A stretch of 64,000 bases of DNA from an uncultured Planctomycetia bacterium (GTDB lineage: Bacteria > Omnitrophota > Gorgyraeia > 2-02-FULL-51-18 > JAGOUK01): positions 158,027-222,026 of the forward strand of contig CAYSFB010000002.1 of assembly GCA_964430735.1 (NCBI GenBank), in the 5' to 3' direction. This document shows, piece after piece, positions 1,818-19,614 of this stretch. The stretch's first letter is position 1. Each line of letters opens with the position of its first letter. Both the position numbers and the translations under genes were made by a program. The notes under the pieces were generated by a model, which saw nothing but the letters and a program-made list of their open reading frames with translations, was not told the DNA's origin and searched no databases.

Positions 1818-2525
1818 GAAGAGGCGGGCGACGATCAGGCTGCCTTCGAACAGGACGAGCATCGGGATGCCGAGCAGCATCTGGCTCGCCACGTCAGGCG
1901 GTGTCAGGATCGCGGCGATGACGGCGATCACGACCCAGACGTGGCGCCGGAAGCGCGCCAGCGTCGCCGTCCGGACCAGCCCCATCGCCACCGCCGCTAC
2001 GACCACCACCGGAAAATCAAACGCCACTCCCGACGCCAGCACGATATCCCCCGCAAACGCCGTATATTCCCGGATCGAGATCATGGGCTTGAGCGCATCG
2101 GTCGCGAAGCTCATCGTGAATTGAAGCGAAGTGGGGAGGATGAAGTAATACCCGAACGCGGCGCCGATCAGGAAGAGGCCGGCGGTTGCGGCGGCCCACG
2201 GCAGAACCGATTTTTTCTCGTGCGCGAACAGCGCCGGAGCGACGAACAGCCAGACCTGGGCCGCGATGACCGGCGAAGCGATCGCGACGCCGCAGACCAG
2301 CGACATCTGGATCCGGATCATGAACGCGTCGGACGGGGAAAAAAAGTAAAGCGGGCCTTCGATCGCCCGGCGCGCGGGCTCGGTGATCCAGGCGACCAAC
2401 CCTTCGGAAAAGAACCAGACGGCGGCCGAGGCGGCGGCCACGGAGCCGACGCTCCAGACGACCACGCGCCGCAAATCGTCGAGGTGGTCGCCGACCTTTT
2501 TCTTATTTGGATCGGGAATGGTCAT
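1800..2525 (-). CDS. tatC: twin-arginine translocase subunit TatC
   Basis: Six-TM profile. TatC N-terminal signature HLDDLRRVVVWSV. The first ATG is at 2525; the ORF track extends to an in-frame GTG at 2576, so the start is uncertain. Confidence 0.8.
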   Translation of the reverse strand: MTIPDPNKKKVGDHLDDLRRVVVWSVGSVAAASAAVWFFSEGLVAWITEPARRAIEGPLYFFSPSDAFMIRIQMSLVCGVAIASPVIAAQVWLFVAPALFAHEKKSVLPWAAATAGLFLIGAAFGYYFILPTSLQFTMSFATDALKPMISIREYTAFAGDIVLASGVAFDFPVVVVAAVAMGLVRTATLARFRRHVWVVIAVIAAILTPPDVASQMLLGIPMLVLFEGSLIVARLFEKKIK

Positions 2526-2703
2526 CGGGCGGGCGGGAATCGCCGGAATCGGTGTCCCGGACGTCGTTGAGCGCACGCTTGAAGTCGCGGACGCCTTTAC
2601 CGAGCGCTCGCGCGAGATCGGGGATGTTCTTGCCGCCGAACAGCACCAAAACCAGGAGGAGGATGACTCCCCACTCGCCCATGCCCGGAGCGCTCAAGCC
2701 CAT
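2503..2703 (-). CDS. tatA: twin-arginine translocase subunit TatA/E
   Basis: Short protein with a single N-terminal TM helix followed by an amphipathic helix: WGVILLLVLVLFGGKNIPDLARALGKGVRDFKRAL. Alternative ATG starts at 2682, 2703 and 2718. Confidence 0.75.
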   Translation of the reverse strand: MGLSAPGMGEWGVILLLVLVLFGGKNIPDLARALGKGVRDFKRALNDVRDTDSGDSRPPDDHSRSK

Positions 2704-5631: not shown

Positions 5632-5757
5632 CCGAATCCCCTGAATAGCCGGTTTAATAACGCTGAAAAAGTCTCTGTGGACGATTTGACAAATCGACAA
5701 ATTACCGAACGATTATAGTTCCCCCGGAGGCCGATGACAAGGTGAATTATGGAAAAA

Positions 5758-8700
5758 TTAGGCGGCCTTCGCGACGGCCTGAATCATCCGGCGCATAGCG
5801 TCGAGGAGCCGGCCGACGTTGAGGGGCCGGAATTCAGCTGCCTTTAGATCTTTATAGTAATCCTGCTGCGCCGCCGGATCGGCCGGAGGCAGCGTGAGCA
5901 TGCTGCGATAAAAAGTTTCTGCACCCTTCATAAAAAATCGACCGATCGCCGACAGGGTGATATCAGCCGCCGTTACGGCGTCCGGCGATCCGGCTTTGCT
6001 TTTTACGAAGGCGAGCTGTGTGCCTCTGCCGGCCGCGGCGGGATAGTTGACATAGGGCGAGTTCGAATCGGCTTTGCCGACGGGCGAAAAAACAATCCAT
6101 TTTTCGATTTCAGCCCGGTCAGCCGCCGACAAATCTTTTAACAACTCCTGCACGGCCCCGCCGCTCATCACCACCACACTGTATATTCCTTCGCGGCCGG
6201 CTTTGCGAATTTGTCCCAAAACTTCGGACCGTTGAACATAACCCCGGGCATTCTCATCCGCGCCCGGCTGAACCAACCCTGTAACACGGGTCGTGATCAA
6301 CCTCACCGAGCTCCCGCCCTTTTGACCCGATACCATCCGCCCAAGACTGGCTGCGTTGGCCCGGACCCCGTCCTGACCCCAGTCTCCGATATTCGCGATC
6401 AGCTGCATTCTGATTGCGGTATCACCGGCGCGTGCAAGAATTCCAAGCCAACGATCCAACTTGCGCCCCAACGCGCCGGCAAGCCGGGCACCGGACACCA
6501 GGCGGCCGGCCGTGAACTGCAACTCCGGTCCCGGTACAACCGACGCGGTCCGCGAGCGCTCCATGGACGGCACCACCAAACCAACCCGCCGCGTTCCGTC
6601 CACCGCCAAGCTCAAACGGCTGCCGGCCAAATACCGGCTCGCACCCTCGGCCGCATTCCGCATTCCAGGCCACAACTGGTCCGCCTCTTCAGCAGAAATC
6701 GATTTATCGGGAAGTGTGAGCGCCCCGGCCAAAAGCCGACGCCCGGCCACCGCCAGCCGGGCACCGTCGGGCTCTTTGTTCGACAGCCGGCTGCGAATCC
6801 GCATCAAGTAATCGCGAATGCCTTCCACATTTTGTTGGCGCGAGAGTTTGAACAAGTCCCCTTTTACACGAGAACTTGCCGGCAGCAATCGAGAAACCGA
6901 TCGGATCACATCCTGCAATGCCGCTTCGTCAATCCGGATCAAATGAGTCCTGGCCGGCTTCCTGCCGTCCGGAAGTTCCACACTTCCGCCGATCGAGCGC
7001 ATGTACGACTTGAACTCATCCACGCCGACACGCGAATCCGTTTCCAGCGAGATGGGTGACAGAATTCCGGTAAAAAACGGCTCGTAGGACCCGCCGTTGC
7101 CCGTGATCCGGATCCGGTCGAGCGGAATCTTCGACTGCGCCAGGAAAAAGCTGGATTCATGAAGGTACTTGAAGGCCGCCGTCACAGCCAGCAGGGCGTT
7201 CAAAACCTGCAAGTCGGCAGCGCCCGCCTGAACCCAATCGTCGAGCCTTTCGGCCGCCGGCTCTTCCTCCAACAGATACAGCGCAGATTCTCCTTGCGGG
7301 TGCTCGAACTGGTCTGGATAAATCCTCATTTTGCGCAGCTGCTCTGCCGTCAAACTCAGACTGTCCGGACCCTCCTGGCTCCGGGAGGGGTCGATGCGTC
7401 CATACCTTATAAAATGCGGAAAATATCGGCCGATAACCGATCGGTTGAGAGAATGTTCGGCCAGGAAAATGCCGACCCGCGCCCGCCACAAAGTAAGCGC
7501 CTGATCCTGGAAGAATGTCCGGACCATGCGGACGGGACCGGTCCCGTTTGAAGCGACGGCATTCTGCTCCTCTATGAAACGCAGATCCGGCTTGCCTCCC
7601 CCCGACAGGGACGAGAGTTTCTCAATCCGGGCAGTCAGAACCTCGTCGTACACGGCACGCTCTATCCGATCGGGTCCCATTAAGATCGTGCGCGCGTAGC
7701 GCTCCTTCCGGCCCTCCTCGGACAGATACCTCAGGGTGATGATCATCGTTTGAAGTTGTTCAAGAATCAAGTTCTGGGTCTGATCGGAGCTTTTTTCCGT
7801 CGTCTTCAACGCTTTAATTTCTTGGGCGGATTTTTCGATCTGACCCAGGAGCCGGTCGGCTGTTTGGTAGAGATTCCGCCTTTCCTCGTAGGACCAGGTG
7901 CGGAGTTTGTTGGTGTGGGTGATGGCGCGGTTGGAATCATACCAGAACTCATTCTGCGTCTTCCGGATATCCGACAGGATCAGCGCAGCGCTCCCGGCTG
8001 TTTCGCCGTCGGAACCGAGGAGACGCTCCAGCTCGCGGGCTGCCGCCTGATAACCGTACAGCGCCCCTCCGGGAGTCAGGGCCTGCGCGGTGAGTATGAC
8101 GGTCAGGTGCTGCGCGTTCGCGAGAGCCGTCGTGATCAATTCATCCGCTTGAGCACCTTCCGGAGCCGATACCTGCACAACATCCTTCACCAGGGCTTCA
8201 GGGTCCCATGAGGGCACTCCTTTTCCGTAGGCATGGCTGATCGCGGTCCGATTCAGCCGTACGAGCTGACGCTCATTCACAACTTCTCTCGCAGCGAGAA
8301 ACTCCAGGTCCCGGCGGAGTTGTGACGGCAGCCGATCGCGGCGGGCGGGCGGCAGCCGGCGGATCAGAGTCCGATCGGCCAAGATGACGTTCATCGCTTC
8401 GATCCCCGCCTCGTCGCCGGCGATCCAGTCCGGCGATCCGGGAACCAGGTTGTCGACTGACATCGCCCCATGCAACTTCCCGATCTTCCGGCTGGCCTTT
8501 TTGCCGCGCCCGAATTCCGAGCTGGCAAAAATCGGGTTAAGCACCTTCTCGGCCGCCTGCCGCTCCCGCGCCGGTTCGGGATCCTGAACGATATAAGGCT
8601 TTTTTTCGATGATCTTGATCCACTTTTGGACTTTTTGCGCGACGCCTGTCACCTCAACTCTCCAATCCGAACTGTCGCGGCGGCTCTCCGTAGACGCCGG

Positions 8701-11700
8701 AAATCCGTCGACAAGATCCGCCAGCTTCAACGCAGTCCCGGATTCGTTCGAACGTTTTGGCAGCAGATTTGCGGCGGCGCGCAGCGTCTCGGCCAATAGA
8801 TATTGGGCGGCCGGGCGGATCTCTTCGAGATCCTCTGACCGGACCGATCCCGGATATTCGCTCACAAGAGAACGGATGATATCAACGAGCTGGATCTGGA
8901 ATTCCTCATAAAAATCCTGGTCGTCATCATCCCGAGCCCAGGAGGAGATAAATTCCGTCGACGGATACTCCAGATTGAGCCATGCGCGGACCAGGTGATT
9001 GTAGGCGCTGACGGCTGAAGATGCGGCGATCTCCCTTTGAGCCAGCGCCAGCTGGACAACGGCCTTGATCATCCGTTCCTCCTCCTTGGCGTGGAGCGGC
9101 TGCGCGGCGCGGCTCTCATGGTAGGGGAAACGAAGGATGTCGGCCATCAGGTCATTCAGACGTTCGATCAGCTCGTCCTCAAACCCGCTCCGAGACGCAA
9201 GCCGGGCGCCGTCCGAAGCCCGATCGTCCGGATTCAGAATCTGCTGCAGGCGGGCGACCCATGCTTCATCATCTTCCGGCGCCTCGTACGGCTCTCGAAC
9301 CGACCAGTCAATGCCGTCGATCCAGTCACGGAAGTTCCGGCGCTGAGGCGCCGCAAGAATCCACACCGCTCCGAGAAGTCCCCACATCGCACCTTTGAGC
9401 GCCCCGCGCAGAAGCGTCATGCGTTCCGGCTCCGGCGTCCAGGGCTGCCCCAAATCCACGGCCGGTTCGGCGCCGAACAAACTTACAACCCGCAGCCGGA
9501 TGCTGTACCCGCCGTTTTCTTCGGGATAAAAATGGTGCGGCTCAAGCTTCAACGGCCCCGAGTTTCCTCTCACTTTTGTCATTTTTTCCCGCAGAATAAA
9601 ATCATCCATCGGCAGCCGGCCGGAATCATGGACCCCCATCTGATAGCCATCGATATTCGAAACAAGGAGCCTGGATCCCGCATCACTAAAACTCTCCGCG
9701 GCTTCTTCGGCTCCCACCGGAATCCTTCTGGAGAATATGACCGGTATTTGGATCTGAAAAACTCCGGGTGAACCGATTTCCGGTGTGATGACCTTCCGGC
9801 CGACGATCGGGTTCTCGCGGTTGCGCCGGACGAGCGCTTTTGCCAGACCTTCGGCAGCAGGTCCGGCGACCGACAACACCGCGGGCAAAGCCGTCCACCT
9901 GAAAAATCCCCTTCGACTCATCCTCCCGTCGGCCTCATCTTCATCGAACGACCCTACGCTGCCCGATGCAAGCCGTGCCCCGTCCAACGCTCCGGCCGTT
10001 TCTGCGAGACGCTGTGCCGCATCCGACAGGTCGGTGCCCTTGAATTTTTCTGACACCCGCTTAAGATCGCGCTTCACGTCCAAGGGTATGTCTCCCGCGA
10101 TAGATCGGACGGCAGGTTTCATTCTGCGCTCCATGATCTGCGTCACCACCTCCAACCACAGTCTCGCGTCCGAATCCGTCAAAGCCGCCTCGAGTCCGTC
10201 CGGCTGCGTTCTGGGCCGGCCGGTCTCGGAATGCATCAAGATGACGGGCAGCACGCGGGACCAGGCGTTGATCAAAAAAGGCACTCCCAGCGTGTCCTTC
10301 TCGTCCGCCAGAAGCGCCTGGAGCGCGTGATCCAAAATTCTTTTTTGCGTCCTCCGGATGCTCTGCTTCAGGTCGTCAAATTCCCGAAGCCCGGACATTT
10401 GGTCCAGAGCGGTGATCGCTTCGACAACGACTGGATGCAGCAAAATGACTTCGCTCCGCTTGTGGGTGCTGGCGTTTTTGAGATCGAGCCTCCGGACCAT
10501 GTCGCCGACCGCTTCAACCAACCGCGCGCGCGTCTCGGGCCGGACACCGGGCTTAAGGGACGTCGAGACCGCTAGGCTCACCACCCCTCTCGTCATGAGT
10601 CTGTCGGGCGACAGCGAAACGAGAATCCTCTGATCGGAATCCAAAAGAGCATCAGACCCGGACTCGGCTTCTGCCGGACCGAGCCGCAGCGCCTCGGCAA
10701 TCCAGCCACCGGCCTCCGAGCCGACCGGCACGCCTTCACGTCCGGGCCTGGGCGAGCGTGTCGTTGGATCAAAAAGGATATACCGAAGATAGTTCATCCA
10801 TTCGGCCCGCCGGTCCGGATAGTTCTCAAGATTCCAGTCTTCCGGCATGCCAATATAGCGGTTCTGCACCTCGCTGTTGAGGGAGTTGCGCGCCTTCGCG
10901 TGCTTCTCCACATAGCTCAATAGCTCGTCAGAATCAGGTCCGAGCGGCCGCAATCCGACTTCGAGCGCCGCCTCACCGGCTTCGCGCTGGATGTCCTCAC
11001 TGACGGCGCGCTTGCGGATCTCGTCAAGAATGCGAACCGTCTCGAGCAGCGTATTGGGCGGAAGCGCCACATCCGGATCAGAATAAAAGCGCTTCATCCC
11101 GCGGACCAATCTAAGAAGCGCCTCAGGACCTTCCTTGGATGCAGTTTCCGCTGACAGGCGTTGTTCGACAAGCCGGCGGAGTCGAAGAAGGGTTCCGAGA
11201 GTCGGCTTGGGGTGCAGAGCCACCGACTCGTCGGCGGCCGCATCCAATTCCTGATCGGTGACGCTCTTGATTTTTTCGCCGCGGAAACGGCGGCGCACCC
11301 TGTCTTCCCACAAGTCCGCCTTGGCCGCGACCGGCACGAGCCCCTCAAAGATCGCATGCAGCCGTCCGTCGGCGTCGGTCCAGCTGCGCGTCCGGCGAAT
11401 CTCCCGGATCCGCTCGACGGCGAGGCGGATTTTTTCTTCCGACTGGGACCGGCCTTCCTCATTAACTTTTTCCTGCAAGAGCCTCAGATGCAGCTCTAGC
11501 GCTTTTTCCTCACTCTTCTGAATCTCGCCGGATCCGTCACTGACGTACAACACTCCGCCGATCACACCGCCGCCGAATAACCGGATATCTTCCATCATCG
11601 CGGCGTTGCGCTGCTCCTCCGCCTTGGAAGCCGGCCGGACTTGAGAAATAAAATTCGCCTGCGCATAATCCGGAAGCATGGACGGTGCCTGAAGCCCCGA

Positions 11701-14700
11701 GGCGATGCGCGTGTCGGAAGCCGAGACCGTGAACGACCGTCTCGAAGCAGCTTCGCTTCCCATCAAGAGCCGAAGATCAGGGTCCCATTCCCCTGTCTCA
11801 GGATTCAGGTGCAGAGTATCCACGATCGGAGTTTGGGGATTCGAGATGCCCGACGCAATCAGGTAAAACGTTCCGCCCTTTTCGATGACATCCAAAACAC
11901 CCAGAGCGCCGAACTTCTGAGCTTGGGCCGCAAAATCGGCTTTGGCTTCGTCTTTATTGGCGCCAAGCTCGAGCCCCCTCAACGCATTCCATTGGTCGCG
12001 GAGGACTTGGCCCGCTTCCGCGTCAACCGGGATTTGCAACGCCGGACGGAACGGCGACCACATGTATCCATCCCGCAGCGCGACAGGATCCATCGTCGCG
12101 GCGCCCATCACGCGGCCAGTCGGAATGTGCACGAGAACCGCCGGAACAAACTGACCGATATAAAGGCCGAGCGGATCGGAATCGGACTTGGAAGCTCCGC
12201 CGATATTTACCCGGAAGCCGTTCTTGGCATCCGGCTGCGGCGCCGAACTCTTGCCCTCCATCCACCGGTTCCACCGCTCGGCATAACGCTCCTTCACAAA
12301 GGCCTGCGCATCCTGCAGGCGACGGAAGCGGCGTACCACCTGACCCTGCTCCTGGACATAAAACGAATATTGAACTGCATCGACTCTAGCGCCGCCGTAA
12401 TGCCAGAACTCCGTGTCTTCTTCGTCCGTCTCATACGTCCGGCCCAGCGCCAGGGACCCGATCCGCGTTCGCGAATCAGTGAGCGCCCTTCGGTAGGAGG
12501 CGAGCGAGCGAACAACTTTTTCGCCGTAGATGCCTCCCAGCGACTTTTCAAGGCTCCAGAGGGAACGGAATTTTTCCCATCGGTCGGCGAGCACCGCCAC
12601 GATCCGGTCGCTCATCTGCGGCAGAATGAAGGACCGGCGCGACACGGAAACGGTGTTGTGCGCCCCGGCATAACCTCCGAGCACCTCGCGGGCGCGCCAC
12701 GCACGGATGTATTCCTGCTCCCAAGGATGCTGGCGCTGGTTCGGGCGCTCCATGAGCCGCAAGCGTTCGATGTGCGCGTTCTCCCGCAGATCCGGCGTCG
12801 GCTCGACACGCCCGACCGCATCCTCGCCGGCCGCTTGCCGCGGCGACCAGGCAAGTCCGGCAAAAACGGCGCCCAGGAACAATCGCCGATTCACCTTCAA
12901 AGCCAGCCTCGCTCCGTCCGGCCGGATCCGGTCCCATAACGCCTTGAACCGCTCTTGGCGCGCGGCCCGGCGCGCCTGCACTCTCGAGTAAATATCTTTG
13001 ACCCGGCCGGCCACGAGTGTTTGGACTTCGGCGAATTCACCGCTTAATTCCACAATGGCGCCGACCGCGAATTCCTGCGCCACTAACCCAAGCCTGGAAT
13101 TCAACGCAACCCGGACCAGCATGGGCGCGGCCGTCGCACCCAGCTGCAGCATGACCGCATGGACAGCCACCCGCACGATCGCCCGCGCGCTGGCGTCCGT
13201 CAGCCCGCCTCCGTCCGCAATGTCCAGAAAGACCGGGAACAGCGCTTGTATCAGGCGGAGGTTTTCCGGCGCAACGGACAGATGGTTTATCGCCGCAGAA
13301 AGCAGCGCCTCTTTTGCCCATTCCAAATCCAAGTCCGGCCTCTGCCGCATGGCTGCGGCGGCCGCCAGCGCGCGCAGCGTCCGCATGGCTGCGACCGCTT
13401 CAGGATCCTTGGCGCCCATCCCTTTGAGAAATGCCCAGAGCTCGGAATTAATTTTTTCGCTTGTCCTCGGGTCCTCGATCAATTTATTGATGATCGCCGA
13501 CCAGTGAGCCCAATGAGTCTCTCCTGCTTCTGGAGAAAAACCTTCTCCGACGATTTCCTCGACCGCAGCGACAAAATGCTCCTTGATATCTCCTTCGACG
13601 GCCGCGCCGCCTCTCAATAAGGCGGGAATCCGGCTCCGAGCCGGTGCGGCCAGCTTCGCGATCTGGCTCCGCGCCGCCGGTCCGCCCGCACGCGTCAATG
13701 CCGAAAGCAGCGCAGCAGCGTCAGAAATCCGGCCAAGATTATCGACTGCGCCTGACGGAAGGCCCGCGTCCGCGATGGATTGGGTGACGATGGCGGACCA
13801 AGCCGACTGCGCCCGGCGGACCGCCTGCTCAGAACCGAGTTTGCGCAACAGGCCTGCCGCCTCGCCGAAGGCCAAGTCGCCGATCAACTGCTGGACGATT
13901 TGCAGATTCTGCTTCTGATCAATCCCGCCCTGCTCCAACTGCATGACCAATCCGGGCATCACATCGCGAACGAGTCCCGCTTTGATCTTCAAATCAATGT
14001 CCGGATCCGCCAGGATTCGGGCGAGCTCACTGACCAGAAAGGGATAATCCGGAACCGGAAGCGCCGGCGGATCGAAGAGCGGCCCGCGCTTTGCCGCGGG
14101 TTGTTGAGCGCCGGCGCGATTCGGCAGCAGCTGCGACAACCCGACCGCCAGTCCGCCGCCGACGAAGCCGCGCCGCGTGACGGAATCACCCGTCGGTTCA
14201 ACATCCGGTGTTGGTGCGGCCCAATCGTCCCTCTTGGCCTCAAAGAACTTGAGCCGGTCGCCGTCGATTCGACGGAACGCTGCGAAGTCCTCCTGATAGA
14301 ACTGCAGGGCCATCCGCGCAAAGCGCTCCTTCAAAAACATTCGCAGCCCTTTGCGTTTCATCTCGCTGAAGCCGCGACGGAGGAGCAGCCTCTCGATGGA
14401 CGCCAATCCGGTGGGACCTGCGACAAAAGTGTAGCCGGCATACAGATCCGGATTAGCGCGAAGATCTTTGGAGAATTCCTCGATCGCGCCCGCCACCTCG
14501 CGCGGCGAATACCCAACATCCATCAAATGCAACTCGATCCGGCCCTTGCCCGCCCGTTTTAAAAATAACGGGCCGTAACTGTGTCTCTCATAAAACCCAA
14601 GCAGCTGCCCGGCCTTCAGATTGACCTGTTGCAGCGCCCCCAGCAGCCGCGCCTGCCACGCACGCTTGGCGGTCTCGGCCATCCGGGATCCGGTTGTTTT

Positions 14701-17700
14701 GAGCAGCACATAGGCGTTCGATTCGCCCTCGATCAAGACATAGGGAGAAGTTATGATTCCTTCGGACGTCTTGCTGTAGAGCCGGAGCTCGCCTGCGACG
14801 GGAGCGATGAGTCGGCCGCCCGGAGCCAGCGCGCTCCAGACGGCATCCGGGACCTCCTTGACGGCGGCGGAGAGGACGATCGCGTCAAAAGCTCCGGGAT
14901 TTTGGGCGGCATACTGGATGCCGTCGTCCTGGACCAAGAGAACTTCCCGGCCGGATGCTTCGGGGAGGCTCCTAAGTTTCTCCAGGTTCGACCGTGCAAA
15001 CGCGGCCAGCTCGGGATCCAACTCAACCGCGACGGATTCACGGGCAAGCTGGCGCGCCCAGGCGGCCAAGTGTCCGGAGCCCGCGCCGATCTCGAGGAAA
15101 CGGTCTTCCGGCTTGAGCTGCAAGGCAGTCAGAATAAACGCCGAACGAGACGGCGCCGGCATCACCTGACCGTTCAAAGTCGCAATGGAGTCGTCCCGGT
15201 ACGCATCCGCGATCCGGTCCTTCGGAACAAAAAGATGCCGCGGCACCCGATCCATCGCATCCATCACTCGGTTCCAACTTTGAATGAAGGACTCGCTGCT
15301 TTCATAGAGCTGATCCAGCGGTTCCCGGAAGCGATCCGTGTTCATCACCGCGGACCAGACCGCCGATTTAAGATTTTCCTGCCCCTGGCGCTCATCCGCC
15401 CCGTCTCCCGCCGCCAGCCGCGCGCCCAGCTGCTTATAAATTGTCTCGAGGTTGTTCATCAGGGTTTTCCAAAATTCAGGGTCGTCGATTTGGTCACGGT
15501 CGATGCGGGCCTGCTTCTGCAACACATCGGCCAAGGCGCGGACCCTCATCGCCTCATCCAGGACCTCACCTTCACTCTTCAGGGGTCCGACACCCTGAAT
15601 CATTGCTGTAAAAAATTCCTCGTTCCCCATCAGAACGGCAAGCCGCCTCAAATCCTCCATCTCCTGAAGCCGGCGGTCGTCGGAAAGGCGCTCCAGGCGT
15701 TTGGCGAGCCAGTCATAGATTTTGAGAAGCGAATCGGAATACCGGGATCTCCGGGCGGTCTCCAGCGCCGGACGAAGTCCCCCCATTTCCCCGGCAATTT
15801 CGCTTGAAAAGATGCTGACATTTTCAAAGAATGAATGTTCCCGTGGATCGTCCAGTTCCCATTCCAGAGTCGTGATGTCCGAAGCCTCCAGCAAAATTCC
15901 TTTGAGCGCCTCGTGCCGCCGCTCGGGATTCTTAATTTGAACGGCCTTTTCGGCGGCGGCTTTAATCTTCTCAAAATCCTTCTCCAAATCCTCGATGCGC
16001 CGATTCCTGGCGAGCCACGGGCGCAGATACTGTTCGGCGAACTGCCTCCGGACGTTCGCGATTTGATCCGGCGTCAGCCCGCCTTCCTTTTTGTATCTTC
16101 CCAACCGCTTCTTGATGTCGCTGAAGACGGTCTCCGGGGAGAGCTGAGAATAAATGTAAAGAGGATGATCCGTCCGGTCATCAGCTTCGGAGCTGTATCG
16201 GTCCGCTTGTTGGATCAGCGACCGAAGCGCCTCCCGTTCCCGCTCCGTCAATCCATCGGCGGCCGCCAACCGGGCGCCTTTCAGCTCCTGAGCCGCCGCA
16301 TGAATCCTGGCCGGCAAACCTCTCTGCCGCGTCCCATCAGCTGCATCGGCGAGTCTGGATTCGGCAGGGGCAGACTGCTTCCAATCAACCAGGTAAGTCA
16401 CGTAACTGCCGGTTTCTGCGCGGTTCTCTGTGTAGTACAGAATCCTCGGATGGTCCGCGCTGGGGACCGGAAACCCTCCCGGCCAACTCCCGATGGACGG
16501 TTCGTGCAACTTCAGCTTTTCTCTAAGGTCCTGCAAAACGATGTCGTCCCCAAATTCGGGCCTGGCATTCCAGGCGACCAGCGCGCCATCGAGAGTCACG
16601 ATGGGGTTTTCTGCGGCGCCATCCAGACTCCGAGCAATCTCTTCTATGAACGTATTCCAGAAGCGGATTCCGTTTGCACCTCCGTCCTCGAGCTTTTTCA
16701 TCGTTTCGGCCAAATCGGACGTCCTGACCGATTCGGGTCGCAGCGGATAAGCAGGTGCGTTGACGGAAATAAATCGGACTGGTCCTTCGAACGCCGGTCG
16801 GCCTTCAGGATCCGTGGAGACGTTGGCGACCGCCGACTCAATTGTCTCGATGCCAGCGGCCTTCAGATTGACCCTGGCATTCGCGACGGCAAATGGATTG
16901 ATGTCCGAAATGCGGTAAACCAGTTCTTCTTCCCGCCCCGCCAGCCGGAGCGCTTCGTGCATAACCCAGGCTCCGATGCCGGTTCCGGTGCCCATGTCCC
17001 AAAGGCGGTCTCCGTCGTTGAACGAAAAACTGCCGACCTTCCTGGACAGGTCCGAAAAAAATGAGCTGTCGGCGCTGTCGTTCGCGGAATCGGCGGGCGA
17101 GTAAACGGTCGGGAAGAGAACGAAGATCGCGCGCGAGGAAGGGCCTTCTTTGGCCAGCATTTCTTTGGCCGCATCGTACATAGTAAGGGCGGGTTCGCCT
17201 TCCTGGTCCGCCTCCAGAAACGCCGACGGATCCACCCCGCTGACGTTTAATGTGGTGCCGTTGAGTTCTACATAGATAAACGGCGTCTGACGGGCTCCTT
17301 TCCACTTGCGTTCAAGCCGGGATGCCATTCCTCCGGCCTCGAGATGCTGTGCAAGCAGCTTGCGATTCGCATCGCGGGATTGGGCGAAGCTCTTCCACTC
17401 CGAGGCGGCCTCGGGATCTCCGACCCGCCGGAGGAGCTCGCCATCGATCGCGTAATCCGCCAGATCCAGATAAGAGTCCTTCTCCCCCTCCCGATCTTCA
17501 CGGAACGGATACACGGCCAGCGGAAGGCCGTTGTGCGAGTACACGCGGAACTTGACGCTTCGGCCGTCGAGGCGAGCCCATGCCGCCGGGTCCACCAGCT
17601 CCCGCAACAACAACGGACCGGTGATCATCTGCGAGGCGGCTTGCGTCTCCAGCTTCACCTCGTATTCGCGGACTTCGCCGCCGTCTTCGTCTTGGACCAC

Positions 17701-19614
17701 ATCCGCCGATGACACCGCGTCCAATCCCAACACTGCCCACAGCTCTCCAAGCGGCGTCCGATCCCGCCATGCGCGCAACAAGTCCGTCCGACCGTCTTTT
17801 TCCAAAATCGGAGAATCGCTTGCAGCGGCCAGCCGCGCAGCCTGGGTCATGCGCTCGGAGAACCCGTGGCCCATCCGCTGATCCGCAAACCGCGCTCCGG
17901 AGGTCTTGGCAAAGCTCTCGCGGGCAAATCGCGCGGCGGCGATTTCGGCGCGGAGGCCGCGCGGGATGCGCGTCTGGGCGACGTTTTGGGCGCGATAAGG
18001 GCCGGTGTCATTGGATGCCTTGGCGGCCAGGCGTTTTTCCTGCTGCCTCAGGTGCGACAGAAGCAGCTCCTCGTACTTCGCGTGATCGGTCGTGTCGGTG
18101 ACCACGGGCGTAAGAACGATGTACGACGTCCCTTCCCGCCTCAAAAGCTCCGTGAGGTGAGCCGTGTGATAGCCGCCGGCCACGAGCACTGCGGCCGAGA
18201 CGTTTTCGCGGTCCATGATCCGGCGGGCATTGTCGACAAAGGCCTCATCGCGCTGTCCCACAAGCTCATAGAACCGGCCGAAGTCGGCGCGGGCGGCTTC
18301 GAGATGATCTTCGGTGGGCACAAGACTCTCGAAGAATCCCAGGTCCGCCAGCTTGCGGTTCATAAAGGCCAGCCAGGACTCGGTCGGGAAGTCCTTTTCG
18401 TTGAACGTGAACGTGCCGAAATCCCGGGACGACATTTGAAGCTTGTAGGCGTTGCCGAGCAGGCCCAAGAACCGGTCGATCGCGCGGACCTTCCGCGCAT
18501 CATCGTCCGGAAGCAGCCGCTCGTAGACCTGGTCCTCAAGCCGCTCCGTCTCAGCGAGAAGGTCGTCCAGGCGGATGTCCAAAAATTCGGACAGATAAGC
18601 TTCGTACGCCCGCAATTCGGCGAACAGTTCCGTCTCGATGCGATGCCCTTCAGCCGTGCGCAACAGATCGCGAATGAGCAGATACTGAGATGCCTGAGAG
18701 GCCTTCAGGCGCTTGGACTGCTCCAGGAACCGCGACACGGCCTCGCGGTCGCCGCGGCCGGAGACCGCTTCGAGCAAGCGCGCCTGCTCCGCGTTGGCCC
18801 GGTCAAAGTCGATCGACCGCTCCCGCTCGAGCAGGACGCGCAGCTTGAGGATGCTTGGGTAGTCTTCGAGCTGCAGCCCCGCCCGGTCCACAAGCTCCAA
18901 AAGCGCCGTCAGCCCCGTCTTGAAGTCGACGGCCGCGTCCGAATCGGCCGAAAGACGGCTGCGCTCATAGTCCTTCAGCTCCTGCGGATACATCCGCACT
19001 TTGAGCCGGTCCAGCGAGGTCTTTGCCTGGTACAAGTAATGCAGAATGTCCTTGCGCCGGTCGACGAGCGCCGCGTAGGCCTTGACCGAGGCGTCGTAGA
19101 GATCTTGGTTTTCGGCGCCGGAGATTTTCATGGGGCGTTCGCTCGTCAGATTCAGATATTCTTCGCCGGAGATGATGCCGTCGTACAAGAAGCGGCGGGC
19201 GATGATCTTCCACTCCTTGAGCGGAGCAAGCTTGCGGACGGCGTCCAGCGATGCGTCGCGGGACCCGCCTTCCACCAGGACCACCGGCAAGTCGTACCGG
19301 CCGAGCAGGTCGTCGAGCGCCTTCGCCAGCGACTGCTGGCCCGAGAGATTCGCGTGGGCATCCTGGATGTGGATGATGAGACGGCCGTTCGTTCCGGCGT
19401 GAACCTCCTGCAGCGTGACCGCGTGCAGCGGGAGATCGAGACGGGAGGGGTCGGATACAAAGGGCGCGATGGCAAGGCGCGCGGCCGCGGCAGGAGCCGG
19501 CTGGATCGGCGGCACCCCTGGACCGGGCGATGCCCAGACGATGTCCTGCGCCGTCAAGCAGGCCAGCGTCAAACATGAAATAAGTTTAAGTTTATTCTTT
19601 AATATAGAGGGCAT
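5758..19614 (-). CDS. giant secreted multidomain protein (4618 aa), paralog of the 36639..50036 gene
   Basis: Uninterrupted 13.86-kb ORF. N-terminal signal peptide. The N-terminal ~600 aa are homologous to giant 2 (IHIQDAHANLSGQ / LVAGGYHTAHLTEL). Internal PCMT-like domain (FLEIGAGSGHLAAW...FDAIVLSAA...GGRLIAPV) near 14.7-15.3 kb. HemK-like methyltransferase motifs (DMGTGTG, NAPAYP) near 16.6-17.1 kb. Six copies of [DG]GARLA plus AAARLA and GARFAD variants. Confidence 0.85.
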   Translation of the reverse strand: MPSILKNKLKLISCLTLACLTAQDIVWASPGPGVPPIQPAPAAAARLAIAPFVSDPSRLDLPLHAVTLQEVHAGTNGRLIIHIQDAHANLSGQQSLAKALDDLLGRYDLPVVLVEGGSRDASLDAVRKLAPLKEWKIIARRFLYDGIISGEEYLNLTSERPMKISGAENQDLYDASVKAYAALVDRRKDILHYLYQAKTSLDRLKVRMYPQELKDYERSRLSADSDAAVDFKTGLTALLELVDRAGLQLEDYPSILKLRVLLERERSIDFDRANAEQARLLEAVSGRGDREAVSRFLEQSKRLKASQASQYLLIRDLLRTAEGHRIETELFAELRAYEAYLSEFLDIRLDDLLAETERLEDQVYERLLPDDDARKVRAIDRFLGLLGNAYKLQMSSRDFGTFTFNEKDFPTESWLAFMNRKLADLGFFESLVPTEDHLEAARADFGRFYELVGQRDEAFVDNARRIMDRENVSAAVLVAGGYHTAHLTELLRREGTSYIVLTPVVTDTTDHAKYEELLLSHLRQQEKRLAAKASNDTGPYRAQNVAQTRIPRGLRAEIAAARFARESFAKTSGARFADQRMGHGFSERMTQAARLAAASDSPILEKDGRTDLLRAWRDRTPLGELWAVLGLDAVSSADVVQDEDGGEVREYEVKLETQAASQMITGPLLLRELVDPAAWARLDGRSVKFRVYSHNGLPLAVYPFREDREGEKDSYLDLADYAIDGELLRRVGDPEAASEWKSFAQSRDANRKLLAQHLEAGGMASRLERKWKGARQTPFIYVELNGTTLNVSGVDPSAFLEADQEGEPALTMYDAAKEMLAKEGPSSRAIFVLFPTVYSPADSANDSADSSFFSDLSRKVGSFSFNDGDRLWDMGTGTGIGAWVMHEALRLAGREEELVYRISDINPFAVANARVNLKAAGIETIESAVANVSTDPEGRPAFEGPVRFISVNAPAYPLRPESVRTSDLAETMKKLEDGGANGIRFWNTFIEEIARSLDGAAENPIVTLDGALVAWNARPEFGDDIVLQDLREKLKLHEPSIGSWPGGFPVPSADHPRILYYTENRAETGSYVTYLVDWKQSAPAESRLADAADGTRQRGLPARIHAAAQELKGARLAAADGLTEREREALRSLIQQADRYSSEADDRTDHPLYIYSQLSPETVFSDIKKRLGRYKKEGGLTPDQIANVRRQFAEQYLRPWLARNRRIEDLEKDFEKIKAAAEKAVQIKNPERRHEALKGILLEASDITTLEWELDDPREHSFFENVSIFSSEIAGEMGGLRPALETARRSRYSDSLLKIYDWLAKRLERLSDDRRLQEMEDLRRLAVLMGNEEFFTAMIQGVGPLKSEGEVLDEAMRVRALADVLQKQARIDRDQIDDPEFWKTLMNNLETIYKQLGARLAAGDGADERQGQENLKSAVWSAVMNTDRFREPLDQLYESSESFIQSWNRVMDAMDRVPRHLFVPKDRIADAYRDDSIATLNGQVMPAPSRSAFILTALQLKPEDRFLEIGAGSGHLAAWARQLARESVAVELDPELAAFARSNLEKLRSLPEASGREVLLVQDDGIQYAAQNPGAFDAIVLSAAVKEVPDAVWSALAPGGRLIAPVAGELRLYSKTSEGIITSPYVLIEGESNAYVLLKTTGSRMAETAKRAWQARLLGALQQVNLKAGQLLGFYERHSYGPLFLKRAGKGRIELHLMDVGYSPREVAGAIEEFSKDLRANPDLYAGYTFVAGPTGLASIERLLLRRGFSEMKRKGLRMFLKERFARMALQFYQEDFAAFRRIDGDRLKFFEAKRDDWAAPTPDVEPTGDSVTRRGFVGGGLAVGLSQLLPNRAGAQQPAAKRGPLFDPPALPVPDYPFLVSELARILADPDIDLKIKAGLVRDVMPGLVMQLEQGGIDQKQNLQIVQQLIGDLAFGEAAGLLRKLGSEQAVRRAQSAWSAIVTQSIADAGLPSGAVDNLGRISDAAALLSALTRAGGPAARSQIAKLAAPARSRIPALLRGGAAVEGDIKEHFVAAVEEIVGEGFSPEAGETHWAHWSAIINKLIEDPRTSEKINSELWAFLKGMGAKDPEAVAAMRTLRALAAAAAMRQRPDLDLEWAKEALLSAAINHLSVAPENLRLIQALFPVFLDIADGGGLTDASARAIVRVAVHAVMLQLGATAAPMLVRVALNSRLGLVAQEFAVGAIVELSGEFAEVQTLVAGRVKDIYSRVQARRAARQERFKALWDRIRPDGARLALKVNRRLFLGAVFAGLAWSPRQAAGEDAVGRVEPTPDLRENAHIERLRLMERPNQRQHPWEQEYIRAWRAREVLGGYAGAHNTVSVSRRSFILPQMSDRIVAVLADRWEKFRSLWSLEKSLGGIYGEKVVRSLASYRRALTDSRTRIGSLALGRTYETDEEDTEFWHYGGARVDAVQYSFYVQEQGQVVRRFRRLQDAQAFVKERYAERWNRWMEGKSSAPQPDAKNGFRVNIGGASKSDSDPLGLYIGQFVPAVLVHIPTGRVMGAATMDPVALRDGYMWSPFRPALQIPVDAEAGQVLRDQWNALRGLELGANKDEAKADFAAQAQKFGALGVLDVIEKGGTFYLIASGISNPQTPIVDTLHLNPETGEWDPDLRLLMGSEAASRRSFTVSASDTRIASGLQAPSMLPDYAQANFISQVRPASKAEEQRNAAMMEDIRLFGGGVIGGVLYVSDGSGEIQKSEEKALELHLRLLQEKVNEEGRSQSEEKIRLAVERIREIRRTRSWTDADGRLHAIFEGLVPVAAKADLWEDRVRRRFRGEKIKSVTDQELDAAADESVALHPKPTLGTLLRLRRLVEQRLSAETASKEGPEALLRLVRGMKRFYSDPDVALPPNTLLETVRILDEIRKRAVSEDIQREAGEAALEVGLRPLGPDSDELLSYVEKHAKARNSLNSEVQNRYIGMPEDWNLENYPDRRAEWMNYLRYILFDPTTRSPRPGREGVPVGSEAGGWIAEALRLGPAEAESGSDALLDSDQRILVSLSPDRLMTRGVVSLAVSTSLKPGVRPETRARLVEAVGDMVRRLDLKNASTHKRSEVILLHPVVVEAITALDQMSGLREFDDLKQSIRRTQKRILDHALQALLADEKDTLGVPFLINAWSRVLPVILMHSETGRPRTQPDGLEAALTDSDARLWLEVVTQIMERRMKPAVRSIAGDIPLDVKRDLKRVSEKFKGTDLSDAAQRLAETAGALDGARLASGSVGSFDEDEADGRMSRRGFFRWTALPAVLSVAGPAAEGLAKALVRRNRENPIVGRKVITPEIGSPGVFQIQIPVIFSRRIPVGAEEAAESFSDAGSRLLVSNIDGYQMGVHDSGRLPMDDFILREKMTKVRGNSGPLKLEPHHFYPEENGGYSIRLRVVSLFGAEPAVDLGQPWTPEPERMTLLRGALKGAMWGLLGAVWILAAPQRRNFRDWIDGIDWSVREPYEAPEDDEAWVARLQQILNPDDRASDGARLASRSGFEDELIERLNDLMADILRFPYHESRAAQPLHAKEEERMIKAVVQLALAQREIAASSAVSAYNHLVRAWLNLEYPSTEFISSWARDDDDQDFYEEFQIQLVDIIRSLVSEYPGSVRSEDLEEIRPAAQYLLAETLRAAANLLPKRSNESGTALKLADLVDGFPASTESRRDSSDWRVEVTGVAQKVQKWIKIIEKKPYIVQDPEPARERQAAEKVLNPIFASSEFGRGKKASRKIGKLHGAMSVDNLVPGSPDWIAGDEAGIEAMNVILADRTLIRRLPPARRDRLPSQLRRDLEFLAAREVVNERQLVRLNRTAISHAYGKGVPSWDPEALVKDVVQVSAPEGAQADELITTALANAQHLTVILTAQALTPGGALYGYQAAARELERLLGSDGETAGSAALILSDIRKTQNEFWYDSNRAITHTNKLRTWSYEERRNLYQTADRLLGQIEKSAQEIKALKTTEKSSDQTQNLILEQLQTMIITLRYLSEEGRKERYARTILMGPDRIERAVYDEVLTARIEKLSSLSGGGKPDLRFIEEQNAVASNGTGPVRMVRTFFQDQALTLWRARVGIFLAEHSLNRSVIGRYFPHFIRYGRIDPSRSQEGPDSLSLTAEQLRKMRIYPDQFEHPQGESALYLLEEEPAAERLDDWVQAGAADLQVLNALLAVTAAFKYLHESSFFLAQSKIPLDRIRITGNGGSYEPFFTGILSPISLETDSRVGVDEFKSYMRSIGGSVELPDGRKPARTHLIRIDEAALQDVIRSVSRLLPASSRVKGDLFKLSRQQNVEGIRDYLMRIRSRLSNKEPDGARLAVAGRRLLAGALTLPDKSISAEEADQLWPGMRNAAEGASRYLAGSRLSLAVDGTRRVGLVVPSMERSRTASVVPGPELQFTAGRLVSGARLAGALGRKLDRWLGILARAGDTAIRMQLIANIGDWGQDGVRANAASLGRMVSGQKGGSSVRLITTRVTGLVQPGADENARGYVQRSEVLGQIRKAGREGIYSVVVMSGGAVQELLKDLSAADRAEIEKWIVFSPVGKADSNSPYVNYPAAAGRGTQLAFVKSKAGSPDAVTAADITLSAIGRFFMKGAETFYRSMLTLPPADPAAQQDYYKDLKAAEFRPLNVGRLLDAMRRMIQAVAKAA

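Follow-up and report, generated by a model that had tools for sequence, protein, structure and literature searches.

Genes of the locus

The analyzed window, the whole stretch of 64,000 nucleotides, contains two giant ORFs together with tatA and tatC:

1800..2576, minus strand: tatC (Pfam TatC, 2.6e-60)
about 2503..2703, minus strand: tatA (Pfam TatA_B_E, 2.6e-15)
5758..19614, minus strand: giant 1, 4618 aa (ORF and translation)
36639..50036, minus strand: giant 2, 4465 aa, a paralogue of giant 1

A FecR-domain gene and rmlC lie between giant 1 and tatA/tatC. A preliminary description of this DNA had taken the neighboring tat genes as a hint of a link to the giant gene. The genes are real, but the link fails: a search around 79 family loci derived from genomes revealed no tatC homologue in the vicinity of any of them, and tatA and tatC show only that the organism possesses a Tat pathway.

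Giant 1, to which protein P0010 of the public library is identical, consists of a Sec-type signal, an N-domain, approximately nine cargo modules and a conserved C-terminal tail. The following parts were located, including junctions with the short motif GARLA and its variants:

19531..19614, minus strand: N-terminal Sec-type signal peptide MPSILKNKLKLISCLTLACLTAQDIVWA, then SP (read from the sequence)
18010..19482, minus strand: N-domain, aa ~45-535 (alignments A1 and A2)
17884..17898, minus strand: GARFA, aa 573-577, the first junction, in a disordered linker right behind the N-domain
16264..16278, minus strand: GARLA, aa 1113-1117
15412..15426, minus strand: GARLA, aa 1397-1401, start of the 245-aa PCMT module
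14677..14691, minus strand: variant GSRMA, aa 1642-1646, end of the PCMT module
12901..12915, minus strand: GARLA, aa 2234-2238
9967..9981, minus strand: GARLA, aa 3212-3216
9196..9210, minus strand: GARLA, aa 3469-3473
6478..6624, minus strand: the final two junctions, GSRLS (aa 4331) and GARLA (aa 4375), preceding the 240-aa C-terminal module
5761..5784, minus strand: C-terminal tail ...IQAVAKAA-COOH

A complete PCMT methyltransferase occupies aa 1447-1616 within the 245-aa module. Giant 2, whose N-domain has 30% identity to that of giant 1, contains about 15 GARLA-type junctions and no Tat-like segment; its cargo includes an FAD oxidoreductase, an aldose epimerase and a HEAT module.

A family of modular giant proteins

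Giants 1 and 2 belong to a family, undescribed and restricted to Omnitrophota, that comprises over 500 loci, with protein lengths of 1,000 to more than 4,600 aa. Its members share a Sec-type signal, a conserved N-domain of ~520 aa, hypervariable and mostly orphan modules, and a conserved carboxy tail with the consensus ...A-[VI]-x-x-[S/A]-A-COOH; the terminal [S/A]-A was present in 18 of the 18 complete GARLA-type giants. Sec-type signals similar to that of giant 1 occur in L008, in L045 and in the family proteins for which the complete sequence was read (P0001, P0003, P0009 and P0011-P0013). The cargo of the family includes SAM methyltransferases, flavoenzymes, an HTH DNA-binding domain, multi-pass membrane modules and modules bearing export signals. 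In distant family members, GARLA is wholly absent.

The hallmark of the family is the N-domain, with the motifs I-Q-D-A-H-x-N, V-E-G and G-G-[YF]-H. Its AlphaFold2 model (pLDDT 79, with aa 536-576 below 50) has a split alpha/beta core with His- and Glu-bearing motifs and a helical insert of ~300 aa. In Foldseek (E 0.15, probability 0.66), the matches of highest probability are EreC, 3b55 and HopBA1, and Pfam gave ChaN (E 0.043) and DUF5694 (E 0.0057); all these fold and profile scores are below significance. We take these proteins, together with Tiki and TraB-PrgY, to form one superfamily. The N-domain resembles the Tiki/TraB-PrgY/ChaN/erythromycin-esterase superfamily in the split alpha/beta core and the I-Q-D-A-H, V-E-G and G-G-Y-H motifs, and differs from it in the helical insert and in scores too low for an activity to be deduced. 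Judging by these weak fold and profile hints, it is possibly a Tiki/ChaN/EreA-like hydrolase. Tiki and TraB are proteases, and the N-domain is tentatively the leading candidate for a protease acting at GARLA.

GARLA junctions as cassette boundaries

The junctions follow the consensus [S/A]-G-A-R-[L/M]-[A/S/T] and are located in polar linkers between modules. Among the 5-mers in the cargo of the 79 family ORFs derived from genomes, GARLA was the most frequent (n = 123), and GAR[LM]A occurred 18 times in the two giants versus once elsewhere across the six frames of the window. The codons for GARLA differ by synonymous changes and the DNA on either side is unconserved, so selection acts on the peptide. 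Compared with random positions of the same proteins, the 15 residues on each flank of the junctions have higher polarity and lower hydrophobicity (p = 1.5e-27). The first junction belongs to the tail of the N-domain model, where confidence is low.

The junctions are cassette boundaries, and modules are gained and lost exactly at the junction motifs. Protein P0011 corresponds to P0001 (90% identity) with an additional 293-aa module placed exactly between AARMA and GSRMA, while L001 and P0002 have 87%-identical ends and different cargo. No cargo module of giant 1 or giant 2 had a match in any other family ORF searched. GC3 shifts at the junctions of giant 2, within a range of 0.52 to 0.82.

Tat-like segments of giant 1

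The leader-like segments that had been reported behind GARLA in giant 1 were all found as quoted and where they had been placed, and one further site, at aa 1813, had been overlooked. Three segments of giant 1 combine RR-x-F-[LVF] with an uncharged stretch of 14-17 residues and a basic, AxA-like end; they are listed with two other segments:

14107..14178, minus strand: Tat-like segment 1, TRRGFVGGGLAVGLSQLLPNRAGA, aa 1813-1836 (from the sequence)
12826..12900, minus strand: Tat-like segment 2, LKVNRRLFLGAVFAGLAWSPRQAAG, aa 2239-2263, directly after GARLA aa 2234-2238
9835..9921, minus strand, with ATG at 9921: Tat-like segment 3, MSRRGFFRWTALPAVLSVAGPAAEGLAKA, aa 3232-3260 (from the sequence)
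9337..9420, minus strand: hydrophobic segment GAMWGLLGAVWILAAP, close to the end of the module of segment 3
6709..6765, minus strand: junction GARLA (aa 4284) followed by VAGRRLLAGALTLP; at the same coordinates GARLAVAGRRLLAGALTL (site GRRLLAGALTL)

Two of the three Tat-like segments follow GARLA, at distances of 4 and 17 residues. In segment 2, which opens a 978-aa orphan module, RR stands 4 residues past the motif; segment 3, the head of a 257-aa orphan module, is separated from GARLA aa 3212-3216 by a 15-residue acidic spacer. Upstream of segment 1, the nearest 160 aa contain no junction motif. The hydrophobic segment at 9337..9420 is possibly a C-terminal membrane anchor, judging by the sequence. 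As for GARLAVAGRRLLAGALTL, the third site of the preliminary description, the sequence is present, but it lies outside the interval delimited there and its hydrophobic stretch is too short: with just 9 uncharged residues ahead of D/K, it was rejected as an export signal.

Chance resemblance in an Arg- and Ala-rich protein might be suspected, as the expression RR.[FGAVML][LITMVF] by itself is not significantly enriched in giant 1 (9 matches observed, 5.1 expected). When it was required to be followed by at least 13 uncharged residues, three sites remained; of 5000 shuffled versions of giant 1, just 8 had three or more. This result and the family-wide data given below disfavor chance, which we consider extremely improbable. 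The curated profiles were less permissive: Pfam TAT_signal matched none of the three sites, and the best TIGR01409 score was 9.8 bits, at the aa 1813 site only, below the cut-off of 16.7. The word "textbook", previously applied to the Tat motif, is too strong by the standards of these two profiles.

Post-junction signals in other genomes

In other Omnitrophota genomes, unrelated modules repeatedly have a Tat-type signal, a Sec-type signal or a membrane anchor in the first 30 residues past GARLA, although export signals as a rule function only at the beginning of a protein. In L008, which also holds an HTH_37 domain and a multi-pass membrane module, three such signals were found: GARLA-ENPN-RRLFLKNVLGAAFLAASA, GARLA-KFKLTS-RRRFLANAA and GARLA-KDSKNKKPEIG-RRRLLQTGLILGGG. 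Further examples are GARMA-GMS-RRDFLLLGMGAAAG in L023, GARLA-QGKT-RRDFLQGLAGLGAIA in L045 and GARLA-ERNKIT-RRQWLNAGLFGGG in L097. The L045 segment scored 22.1 bits with TIGR01409, above the curated cut-off, which also speaks against chance; the matches of the L023 and L008 segments to Tat profiles were sub-threshold.

In the family, RR with an uncharged hydrophobic stretch was found 7 times within 30 aa behind a junction versus 27 times elsewhere, a 7.4-fold positional enrichment (p = 1.2e-4), and strongly hydrophobic segments were 3-fold enriched behind junctions (p = 0.004). Only ~3% of the junctions have a Tat-like signal behind them. In the examples read, the positive charges are N-terminal of the hydrophobic part; by the positive-inside rule, this orientation would fit a signal acting from the cytoplasm rather than a stop-transfer segment in a chain being exported. 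Given the recurrence past GARLA in unrelated modules and the L045 score, the suggestion of functional internal export or cleavage signals is the better supported of the two explanations offered in the preliminary description.

Possible processing of the giants

The reading that we prefer, though with confidence only about evenly balanced between belief and doubt, is that the giants may be polyproteins cut at GARLA, whose products are sorted by their own signals. GARLA would be a proteolytic processing site, and a cut there would free the N-terminus of each module. A module led by a twin-arginine signal would then be exported folded via TatAC, one led by a Sec-type signal or signal-anchor would go to Sec or the membrane, a signal-less module would remain in the cytoplasm, and the N-domain would exit through its own Sec signal. 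Under such processing, segments 2 and 3 of giant 1 (aa 2239-2263 and 3232-3260) would be latent N-terminal signals exposed by cleavage. The encoded tatA and tatC are a point in favor of the polyprotein reading, and the failure of the curated Tat profiles at the three sites of giant 1 is a point against it. In addition, cleavage leaves at least one Tat-like segment unexplained, because the aa 1813 site lacks a junction upstream. The low share of junctions with a Tat-like signal behind them, the absence of GARLA from distant members and the weak hydrolase assignment of the N-domain likewise count against this reading. The Sec signal leading the chain would pull later modules through Sec unless the N-domain were removed early, and an N-domain that is exported would not encounter a cytoplasmic substrate.

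Another explanation, which we regard as rather unlikely, is that the giant stays uncut, its RR-hydrophobic segments being internal Tat signal-anchors or ordinary TM helices and GARLA a linker or docking motif; the domains of one huge protein would lie on both sides of the membrane, a distribution known from dual Sec/Tat membrane proteins. Internal twin-arginine signals without a free N-terminus do function, uncleaved, in actinobacterial Rieske proteins and related families (PMC5449189), which counts against the polyprotein reading, and the aa 1813 site without an upstream junction agrees with an uncut chain as well. However, dual Sec/Tat proteins have an even number of TM helices before RR, whereas giant 1 has its N-terminal signal only. 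Because no hydrophobic segment is present in giant 1 from aa 30 to 1813, the uncut topology would put two SAM methyltransferases outside the cell, and positive charges would end up on the wrong side of the next helix. Nor does it account for signals 4-17 residues past a conserved junction in unrelated modules. A single uncut protein is also hard to reconcile with one ORF that mixes SAM methyltransferases, HTH_37, multi-pass membrane and Tat-led modules.

The leaders could also be evolutionary relics: whole genes would have been captured in frame, each complete with start codon and Tat or Sec leader, and the leaders would survive for a time after losing their function. The in-frame fusion of secreted-protein genes proposed earlier gains indirect support from the cassette indels exactly at junctions, the mosaic GC3 and the start-like Met kept in two leaders, MSRRGFF of giant 1 and MSRRDFL of L023; an SD-like GGGAGG adjoins ATG 9921, and scores below the curated Tat profiles are expected of decaying signals. 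The proposed comparison with free-standing secreted proteins had the opposite outcome. Searches of 5.8 billion clustered proteins, of 1.84 billion representatives (exhaustively; the 978-aa module of segment 2 matched only itself) and of JGI metagenomes gave no free-standing homologue of either Tat-led module next to GARLA, so a donor gene is undocumented. Moreover, decay should not spare RR, the hydrophobic region, the basic c-region and AxA in at least seven unrelated modules. Loss of function is for these reasons also judged improbable, while relic capture as an account of origin is compatible with the polyprotein reading.

Internal translation initiation instead of proteolysis, for example from the Met of MSRRGFF, might make the signal-bearing proteins; ATG 9921 has GGGAGG directly upstream, and TTG and GTG codons occur shortly ahead of NRRLFL. 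Yet the spacing between the SD-like hexamer and the ATG is zero, most post-junction Tat-like segments of the family (L008, L045, L097) have no Met or start-like residue, and the conserved element is the GARLA peptide with varying codons, not an RNA signal. We consider this explanation very unlikely.

Comparison with known systems

Giant proteins of the same phylum, Omnitrophota, were described by West-Roberts et al. in 2023 (bioRxiv 10.1101/2023.11.21.568195). They have 30,000-85,000 aa, C39/S8 peptidase and SecA-like domains and many transmembrane helices, and no junction motif was found in the preprint under cleavage-related terms; the present family differs in its length of 1,000 to more than 4,600 aa, its N-domain and its explicit candidate cleavage motif.

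The Tat-like segments of giant 1 share with canonical Tat signals (TIGR01409, Pfam PF10518) the pattern S/T/N-R-R-x-F-[LVF], a Gly/Ala-rich uncharged stretch of 14-17 residues, a basic c-region residue and an AxA-like end. Unlike canonical signals, they are not at the ORF N-terminus and remain below both profiles, which family members reach or pass. Dual Sec/Tat membrane proteins, such as the Streptomyces Rieske protein Sco2149 and related families, likewise have an internal twin-arginine motif preceding a hydrophobic helix (PMC5449189, PMC3471235). In these proteins, the motif comes after an even number of Sec-inserted helices and is followed by a cofactor-binding domain, and cleavage does not occur; none of these features was seen in the giants.

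The MARTX toxins of Vibrio and relatives are also giant (up to about 5200 aa), with conserved ends and a mosaic, recombining array of unrelated effectors. Short motifs in unstructured linkers are cut to free the modules, as would be the case for GARLA judging by sequence. The MARTX cleavage site has the consensus small-Leu-small (PMC2900308). GARLA likewise contains Leu-Ala, but its P2 residue is Arg and not a small one. In contrast to MARTX, neither the two giants nor L008 and L045 gave a Pfam match to a cysteine protease or RTX-repeat family, and the giants have an N-terminal Sec signal instead of a C-terminal type I signal. The cargo of the family includes Tat- or Sec-addressed and membrane modules, which are not known from MARTX toxins.

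In viral polyproteins (flaviviruses, pestiviruses, bunyavirus Gn/Gc), a single translated chain is split at defined junctions, as is proposed for the giants. In these polyproteins, internal signal sequences behind the junctions send the downstream part across the membrane. They belong to eukaryotic viruses and depend on co-translational Sec61 and host signal peptidase, whereas the giants are encoded on a bacterial chromosome at hundreds of paralogous loci and would use the post-translational Tat route.

Two giant proteins built from modules

Two giant proteins are encoded on the minus strand of the window. Their recognizable parts and the neighboring genes are listed below.

5758..19614, minus strand: giant 1, ORF of 4618 aa
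36639..50036, minus strand: giant 2, ORF of 4465 aa
Giant 1, aa 860-999: HemK-like methyltransferase (Pfam/NCBIfam)
Giant 1, aa 1447-1616: complete protein-L-isoaspartate methyltransferase within the 245-aa module 1401-1645 (Pfam/NCBIfam)
Giant 2: FAD oxidoreductase, aldose 1-epimerase, and HEAT repeats (Pfam/NCBIfam)
5761..5784 and 36642..36665, minus strand: C-terminal tails of the giants with a [S/A]-Ala-COOH end
1800..2703, same strand as giant 1: tatA and tatC
3277..5700, minus strand: FecR-domain protein (807 aa), directly downstream of giant 1
1085..1747, minus strand: IS200-like (Y1 transposase) ORF directly beside tatC
33648..36557, plus strand: distant GH94-like gene (22% identity), tail-to-tail with giant 2

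Each giant opens with a Sec-type signal peptide, and a homologous N-terminal domain of ~520 aa comes next (N-domain; 30% identity between the two). GARLA-type junctions (10 in giant 1, about 15 in giant 2) divide the remaining sequence, the cargo, into modules. Besides GARLA, the variants GARMA, GARFA, GSRMA, GSRLS, and GAQLA occur among these junctions. The pattern GAR[LM]A was found 18 times in the two giants vs. once in all remaining six-frame sequence of the window. Few of the segments between junctions were recognized by Pfam and NCBIfam. Judging by the sequence, the 257-aa module of giant 1 might be anchored at its C-terminus by the short hydrophobic stretch that closes it (aa 3409-3424).

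The FecR-domain gene and rmlC lie between tatA-tatC and giant 1. Small FecR-like ORFs also adjoin three other giants of the family (loci L025, 6671..7318; L038, 9114..9737; L054, 7710..8474). The presence of tatA-tatC near giant 1 had been regarded as suggestive in the preliminary description; the genes are indeed there, but their adjacency is incidental, since no tatC homologue was detected near the 79 genome-derived family loci. At least 14 loci (L063, L067, L069, L106-L108, and others) contain a GH94-like glycoside phosphorylase gene directly upstream of a short stand-alone N-domain gene. The GH94-like neighbor may point to an ancestral role of the N-domain.

Twin-arginine-like segments of giant 1

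Leader-like segments behind GARLA sites, one of them a "textbook" Tat signal, had been described for giant 1, and all of the quoted strings are present where they were reported. In NRRLFLGAVFAGLAWSPRQAAG, the RR pair is located 4 residues past the GARLA of 12915..12901, and in MSRRGFFRWTALPAVLSVAGPAAEGLAKA it is located 17 residues past the GARLA of 9981..9967. The third segment, GARLAVAGRRLLAGALTL (6765..6709), was not counted as Tat-like because it has just nine uncharged residues. Another segment, TRRGFVGGGLAVGLSQLLPNRAGA (aa 1813-1836, 14178..14107), had been missed; it has no upstream junction.

The sequences TRRGFV, NRRLFL, and SRRGFF fit the TatP expression RR.[FGAVML][LITMVF] (twin-arginine consensus, S/T-R-R-x-F-L-K), and GRRLLA does not. 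The three good sites also have the two other parts expected of a Tat signal, namely an h-region that is uncharged and moderately hydrophobic over at least 12-13 residues and a c-region whose -1 and -3 residues are small. Their uncharged runs after the RR motif comprise 17, 14, and 15 Gly/Ala-rich residues, and their c-regions (PNRAGA, SPRQAAG, and EGLAKA) contain a basic residue followed by an AxA-like end. Among 5000 shuffles of giant 1, only 8 contained at least three sites combining the expression with an uncharged stretch; by itself, the expression showed no enrichment over shuffles. PF10518 gave no match on giant 1, and the best TIGR01409 score was 9.8 bits (cut-off 16.7), at one site alone. 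Thus, the segments are real and not likely due to chance, but "textbook" overstates them, since the curated profiles fail to recognize them.

All three sites are internal in the translated ORF (start aa 1813, 2242, and 3233), whereas a Tat signal should lie within about 35 residues of a free N-terminus. The two sites behind junctions would come near a free N-terminus only if GARLA is cut. The aa 1813 segment, which no junction precedes, was not attributed to junction cutting; three readings are left for it, namely a relic, an internal signal, and a membrane helix. Just before the Met of MSRRGFF, the two codons of G-R form an SD-like hexamer, GGGAGG, with zero spacing to the ATG at 9921 (9921..9930); this is too close for a ribosome-binding site and could be a remnant. 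Internal translation initiation at such sites is unlikely, both because the hexamer abuts the ATG without a spacer and because a start codon is missing in most family examples.

Export signals behind junctions in other genomes

Similar Tat-type signals were found directly behind junctions at other loci of the family.

L008: GARLA-ENPN-RRLFLKNVLGAAFLAASAG; GARLA-KFKLTS-RRRFLANAAKLLAGGAF; GARLA-KDSKNKKPEIG-RRRLLQTGLILGGGLLLVGG
L023: GARMA-GMS-RRDFLLLGMGAAAGWTAGSAF
L045: GARLA-QGKT-RRDFLQGLAGLGAIALTGLG
L097: GARLA-ERNKIT-RRQWLNAGLFGGGIAAIVFG

The modules led by these signals are unrelated to those of giant 1 and to each other. The L045 segment scored 22.1 bits with TIGR01409, above the cut-off of 16.7, and 21.5 with PF10518, just below the cut-off of 22.7; the L023 and L008 segments gave sub-threshold matches to Tat-signal models. 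Other junctions are followed by Sec-like signals or by signal-anchors (L010, L022, L040, L047, L052, L083, L090, and L093), and no lipoprotein lipoboxes were found behind junctions. In the examples read, positive charges of the post-junction signals are on the N-terminal side.

Enrichment was estimated for 161 family ORFs with 304 junctions, in which the 30-residue post-junction zone makes up 3.4% of the sequence. An RR pair with an uncharged hydrophobic stretch occurred 7 times in this zone and 27 times elsewhere (7.4-fold, p = 1.2e-4), and strongly hydrophobic segments were 3-fold enriched there (p = 0.004). Chance resemblance, contradicted by both the shuffles and this positional enrichment, is extremely improbable. 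The original observation is therefore confirmed and extends well beyond the window. Of the two explanations offered earlier, gene fusion and functional internal signals, the latter is better supported, as similar signals follow junctions in unrelated modules of other genomes.

Junctions as breakpoints of module exchange

GARLA is the commonest 5-mer in the cargo of family ORFs (123 occurrences; GARL, 175), and the logo of the motif reads [S/A]-G-A-R-[L/M]-[A/S/T], the flanks carrying no information. Synonymous codons are used freely in the motif, indicating that it is conserved as a peptide and not as a repeat in DNA or RNA. The synonymous codon variation and the differing flanks also ruled out a repeat or recombination site at the DNA level. 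Compared with random positions of the same proteins, the flanks are more polar and less hydrophobic (p = 1.5e-27), and the first junction falls in the disordered tail of the AlphaFold2 model of the N-domain.

Cargo is exchanged at these points. The JGI metagenome proteins P0001 and P0011 share 90% identity over 938 residues, and P0011 contains an extra 293-aa module with an HD motif, which begins exactly behind ...SAARMA and ends in ...SGSRMA. In L001 and P0002, N- and C-terminal parts with 87% identity flank entirely different cargo; the swapped region (~860 aa) includes an LMW-phosphatase-like CX5R(S) motif. Junctions are thus breakpoints of module exchange. In giant 2, GC3 is 0.52-0.64 in some modules vs. 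0.71-0.82 in their neighbors, with shifts at GARLA junctions (41100..43720, 46000..48260), and the GC content of 42-44 kb drops to 50% vs. about 60% elsewhere; the GC3 mosaic suggests modules differing in origin or age. A linker of ~33 residues behind the giant 2 N-domain, ASEQGPIADQVRPE[VI]P..DERGS..GA[RQ]MA (48261..48371), recurs ~1500 residues downstream (43722..43820), possibly as a trace left when giants recombined.

The cargo modules of giants 1 and 2 gave no BLAST matches in the 79 genome-derived family ORFs, including those with an N-domain identity of 65%, and BLAST and phmmer found no homology between cargo modules of different giants or between C-terminal modules. The 257-aa Tat-led module of giant 1 has no relative in 5.8 billion clustered proteins or JGI metagenomes, and an exhaustive HMMER search of 1.84 billion representatives with the 978-aa Tat-led module returned only giant 1 itself (entry P0010). 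The free-standing relatives of these GARLA-adjacent modules that had been proposed earlier as a check were thus not found in the collections searched with each module. For eight Tat-led modules, Pfam analysis gave a weak NAGPA match (L023) and TAT_signal itself, and nothing else.

As an account of origin, leaders that are relics of captured genes offer a good explanation, which fits the retention of MSRR, the indels of whole cassettes, and the GC3 mosaic, although donor genes were not found. The same applies to the in-frame fusion proposed in the preliminary description, which is a plausible history. A relic origin is compatible with a present function.

The family and its N-terminal domain

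Scanning one genome per species with the N-domain gave at least 590 matching stretches, at least 501 of which encode relatives; 79 loci were kept as the genome-derived set, and 157 further relatives were found in JGI metagenomes. The kept loci are labeled Omnitrophota, "uncultured Planctomycetia", or Eisenbacteria. Many of the MAG records (L001, L003, L009-L012, L014, L028, and others) are titled "uncultured Planctomycetia" or "Candidatus Eisenbacteria", which probably reflects taxonomic labeling and not the true distribution. A single MAG can contain up to nine or more paralogues. All database entries of the family are hypothetical proteins. Members vary widely in length: the shortest are stand-alone N-domain proteins (480-620 aa), whereas the longest ORFs extend beyond the 10-kb flank and thus exceed 3800 aa.

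The complete GARLA-type giants, including both in the window, end in [S/A]-Ala-COOH (18/18), usually as ...A-[VI]-x-x-[S/A]-A (e.g., AVGAAA, AIAA, AKAA, and QSA). The ending is shared by L001, L011, L021, L024, L025, L027, L030, L036, L038, L040, L052, L054, L058, L059, L092, and L093. Conservation of the C-terminal modules is limited to these last few residues, and the rest cannot be aligned between members. The ending could be a tag for secretion, an unfoldase, or a tail-specific protease, or could mimic a junction product.

The N-domain has no Pfam or NCBIfam model and contains the near-invariant motifs I-Q-D-A-H, E115, and G-G-[YF]-H. Its structural model (pLDDT 79) gave the highest-probability Foldseek matches with erythromycin esterase EreC, 3b55, and HopBA1. 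Single members show weak Pfam matches to ChaN (Tiki superfamily) and DUF5694. The domain may be a hydrolase of the Tiki/ChaN/EreA type. A profile search against the PDB gave noise only, and a search with 26 diverse N-domains matched hypothetical Omnitrophota proteins exclusively.

Possible cleavage and sorting of modules

Signals of the free-N-terminus type repeatedly open unrelated modules just past a junction, that is, at a cassette boundary. This is most simply explained if GARLA is a processing site, after which the modules would be sorted by their own signals; we hold this reading with about even confidence. Each module would be a separate protein in waiting, freed by cutting at GARLA. 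The Sec-addressed N-domain could be severed from the remaining chain, since the first junction is always close behind it. Tat-led modules would be exported after translation. The Tat route takes finished, folded proteins post-translationally and for this reason would suit such a design. Incompatible destinations within one ORF also fit cutting: SAM-dependent methyltransferases and Tat-led modules occur together, and the single ORF of L008 (7357..18987) contains an HTH_37 DNA-binding module, three modules with Tat-like leaders, and a module with 4-5 transmembrane helices, all separated by GARLA. The positive charges on the N-terminal side correspond to signals engaging from the cytoplasm, which fits cutting as well.

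The N-domain is the obvious candidate protease because the motif is confined to proteins that carry it; distant N-domain relatives have neither GARLA nor a detectable substitute recurrent motif. Clustering of ORFs flanking 159 loci revealed no conserved neighboring protease gene.

Alternatively, the giant could remain uncut, with the Tat segments serving as internal signal-anchors, for which dual Sec/Tat membrane proteins are a precedent (PMC5449189). In those proteins, an even number of helices precedes the RR motif, one helix follows, and a cofactor domain lies downstream. Here, no hydrophobic segment at all was found in giant 1 between the N-terminal signal and the first Tat-like segment (aa 30-1813), and no Pfam cofactor domain was found in the Tat-led modules. 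In addition, an uncut multi-spanning chain behind a Sec signal would need a stop-transfer helix of opposite charge bias. This alternative is unlikely.

A more speculative possibility, to which we give little credence, is that a predatory or parasitic Omnitrophota cell uses the giants as effector arrays. The whole chain would be exported unfolded by the Sec signal and a carrier N-domain, enter a prokaryotic prey or host, and be cut at GARLA there, and the modules would use the Tat and Sec systems of the victim to reach its envelope. Such arrays would parallel eukaryote-directed effectors with nuclear or mitochondrial targeting signals and, if real, would account for cytoplasm-type enzymes behind a Sec signal, hypervariable cargo, and many paralogues per genome.

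Significance and comparison with known systems

If GARLA is a processing site, the giants would represent a cellular, chromosomal bacterial polyprotein system, with dozens of unrelated proteins per chain sent separately to the cytoplasm, membrane, and periplasm (by Tat or Sec). To our knowledge, polyprotein organization has so far been associated with viruses and a few toxins. Literature searches turned up no account of GARLA or the family, nor of any bacterial polyprotein that carries twin-arginine signals, and this would be the first case found there of such signals staying latent until exposed by proteolysis. That modules are gained and lost like cassettes at junctions suggests an unusual route to protein diversity. 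With the motif and the N-domain profile, existing metaproteomes can be mined at once for junction-derived peptide termini.

The giant Omnitrophota proteins of West-Roberts et al. 2023 (bioRxiv 10.1101/2023.11.21.568195), for which that study explicitly had no candidate cleavage points, belong to a different family. GARLA would provide the first explicit candidate motif for the question of whether Omnitrophota giants get cut.

The closest system in working principle is the MARTX toxin, in which conserved ends enclose a mosaic array of effectors that are cleaved off at small-Leu-small sites located in unstructured linkers (PMC2900308). In the giants, too, a short motif recurs in the unstructured linkers that separate unrelated modules, and exchangeable modules form a mosaic between conserved ends. 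Where MARTX has a type I signal, the giants have a Sec signal, and module release is for them a prediction from sequence. The Peptidase_C80 cysteine protease and RTX repeats were absent from the Pfam matches of giants 1 and 2 (E up to 0.01) and of L008 and L045 (E up to 1e-4). The "cut, then target" logic of the proposed scheme is also that of viral polyproteins with internal signal sequences. By its sequence features, the system would be a polyprotein or effector array, here cellular and bacterial, with latent Tat and Sec signals.
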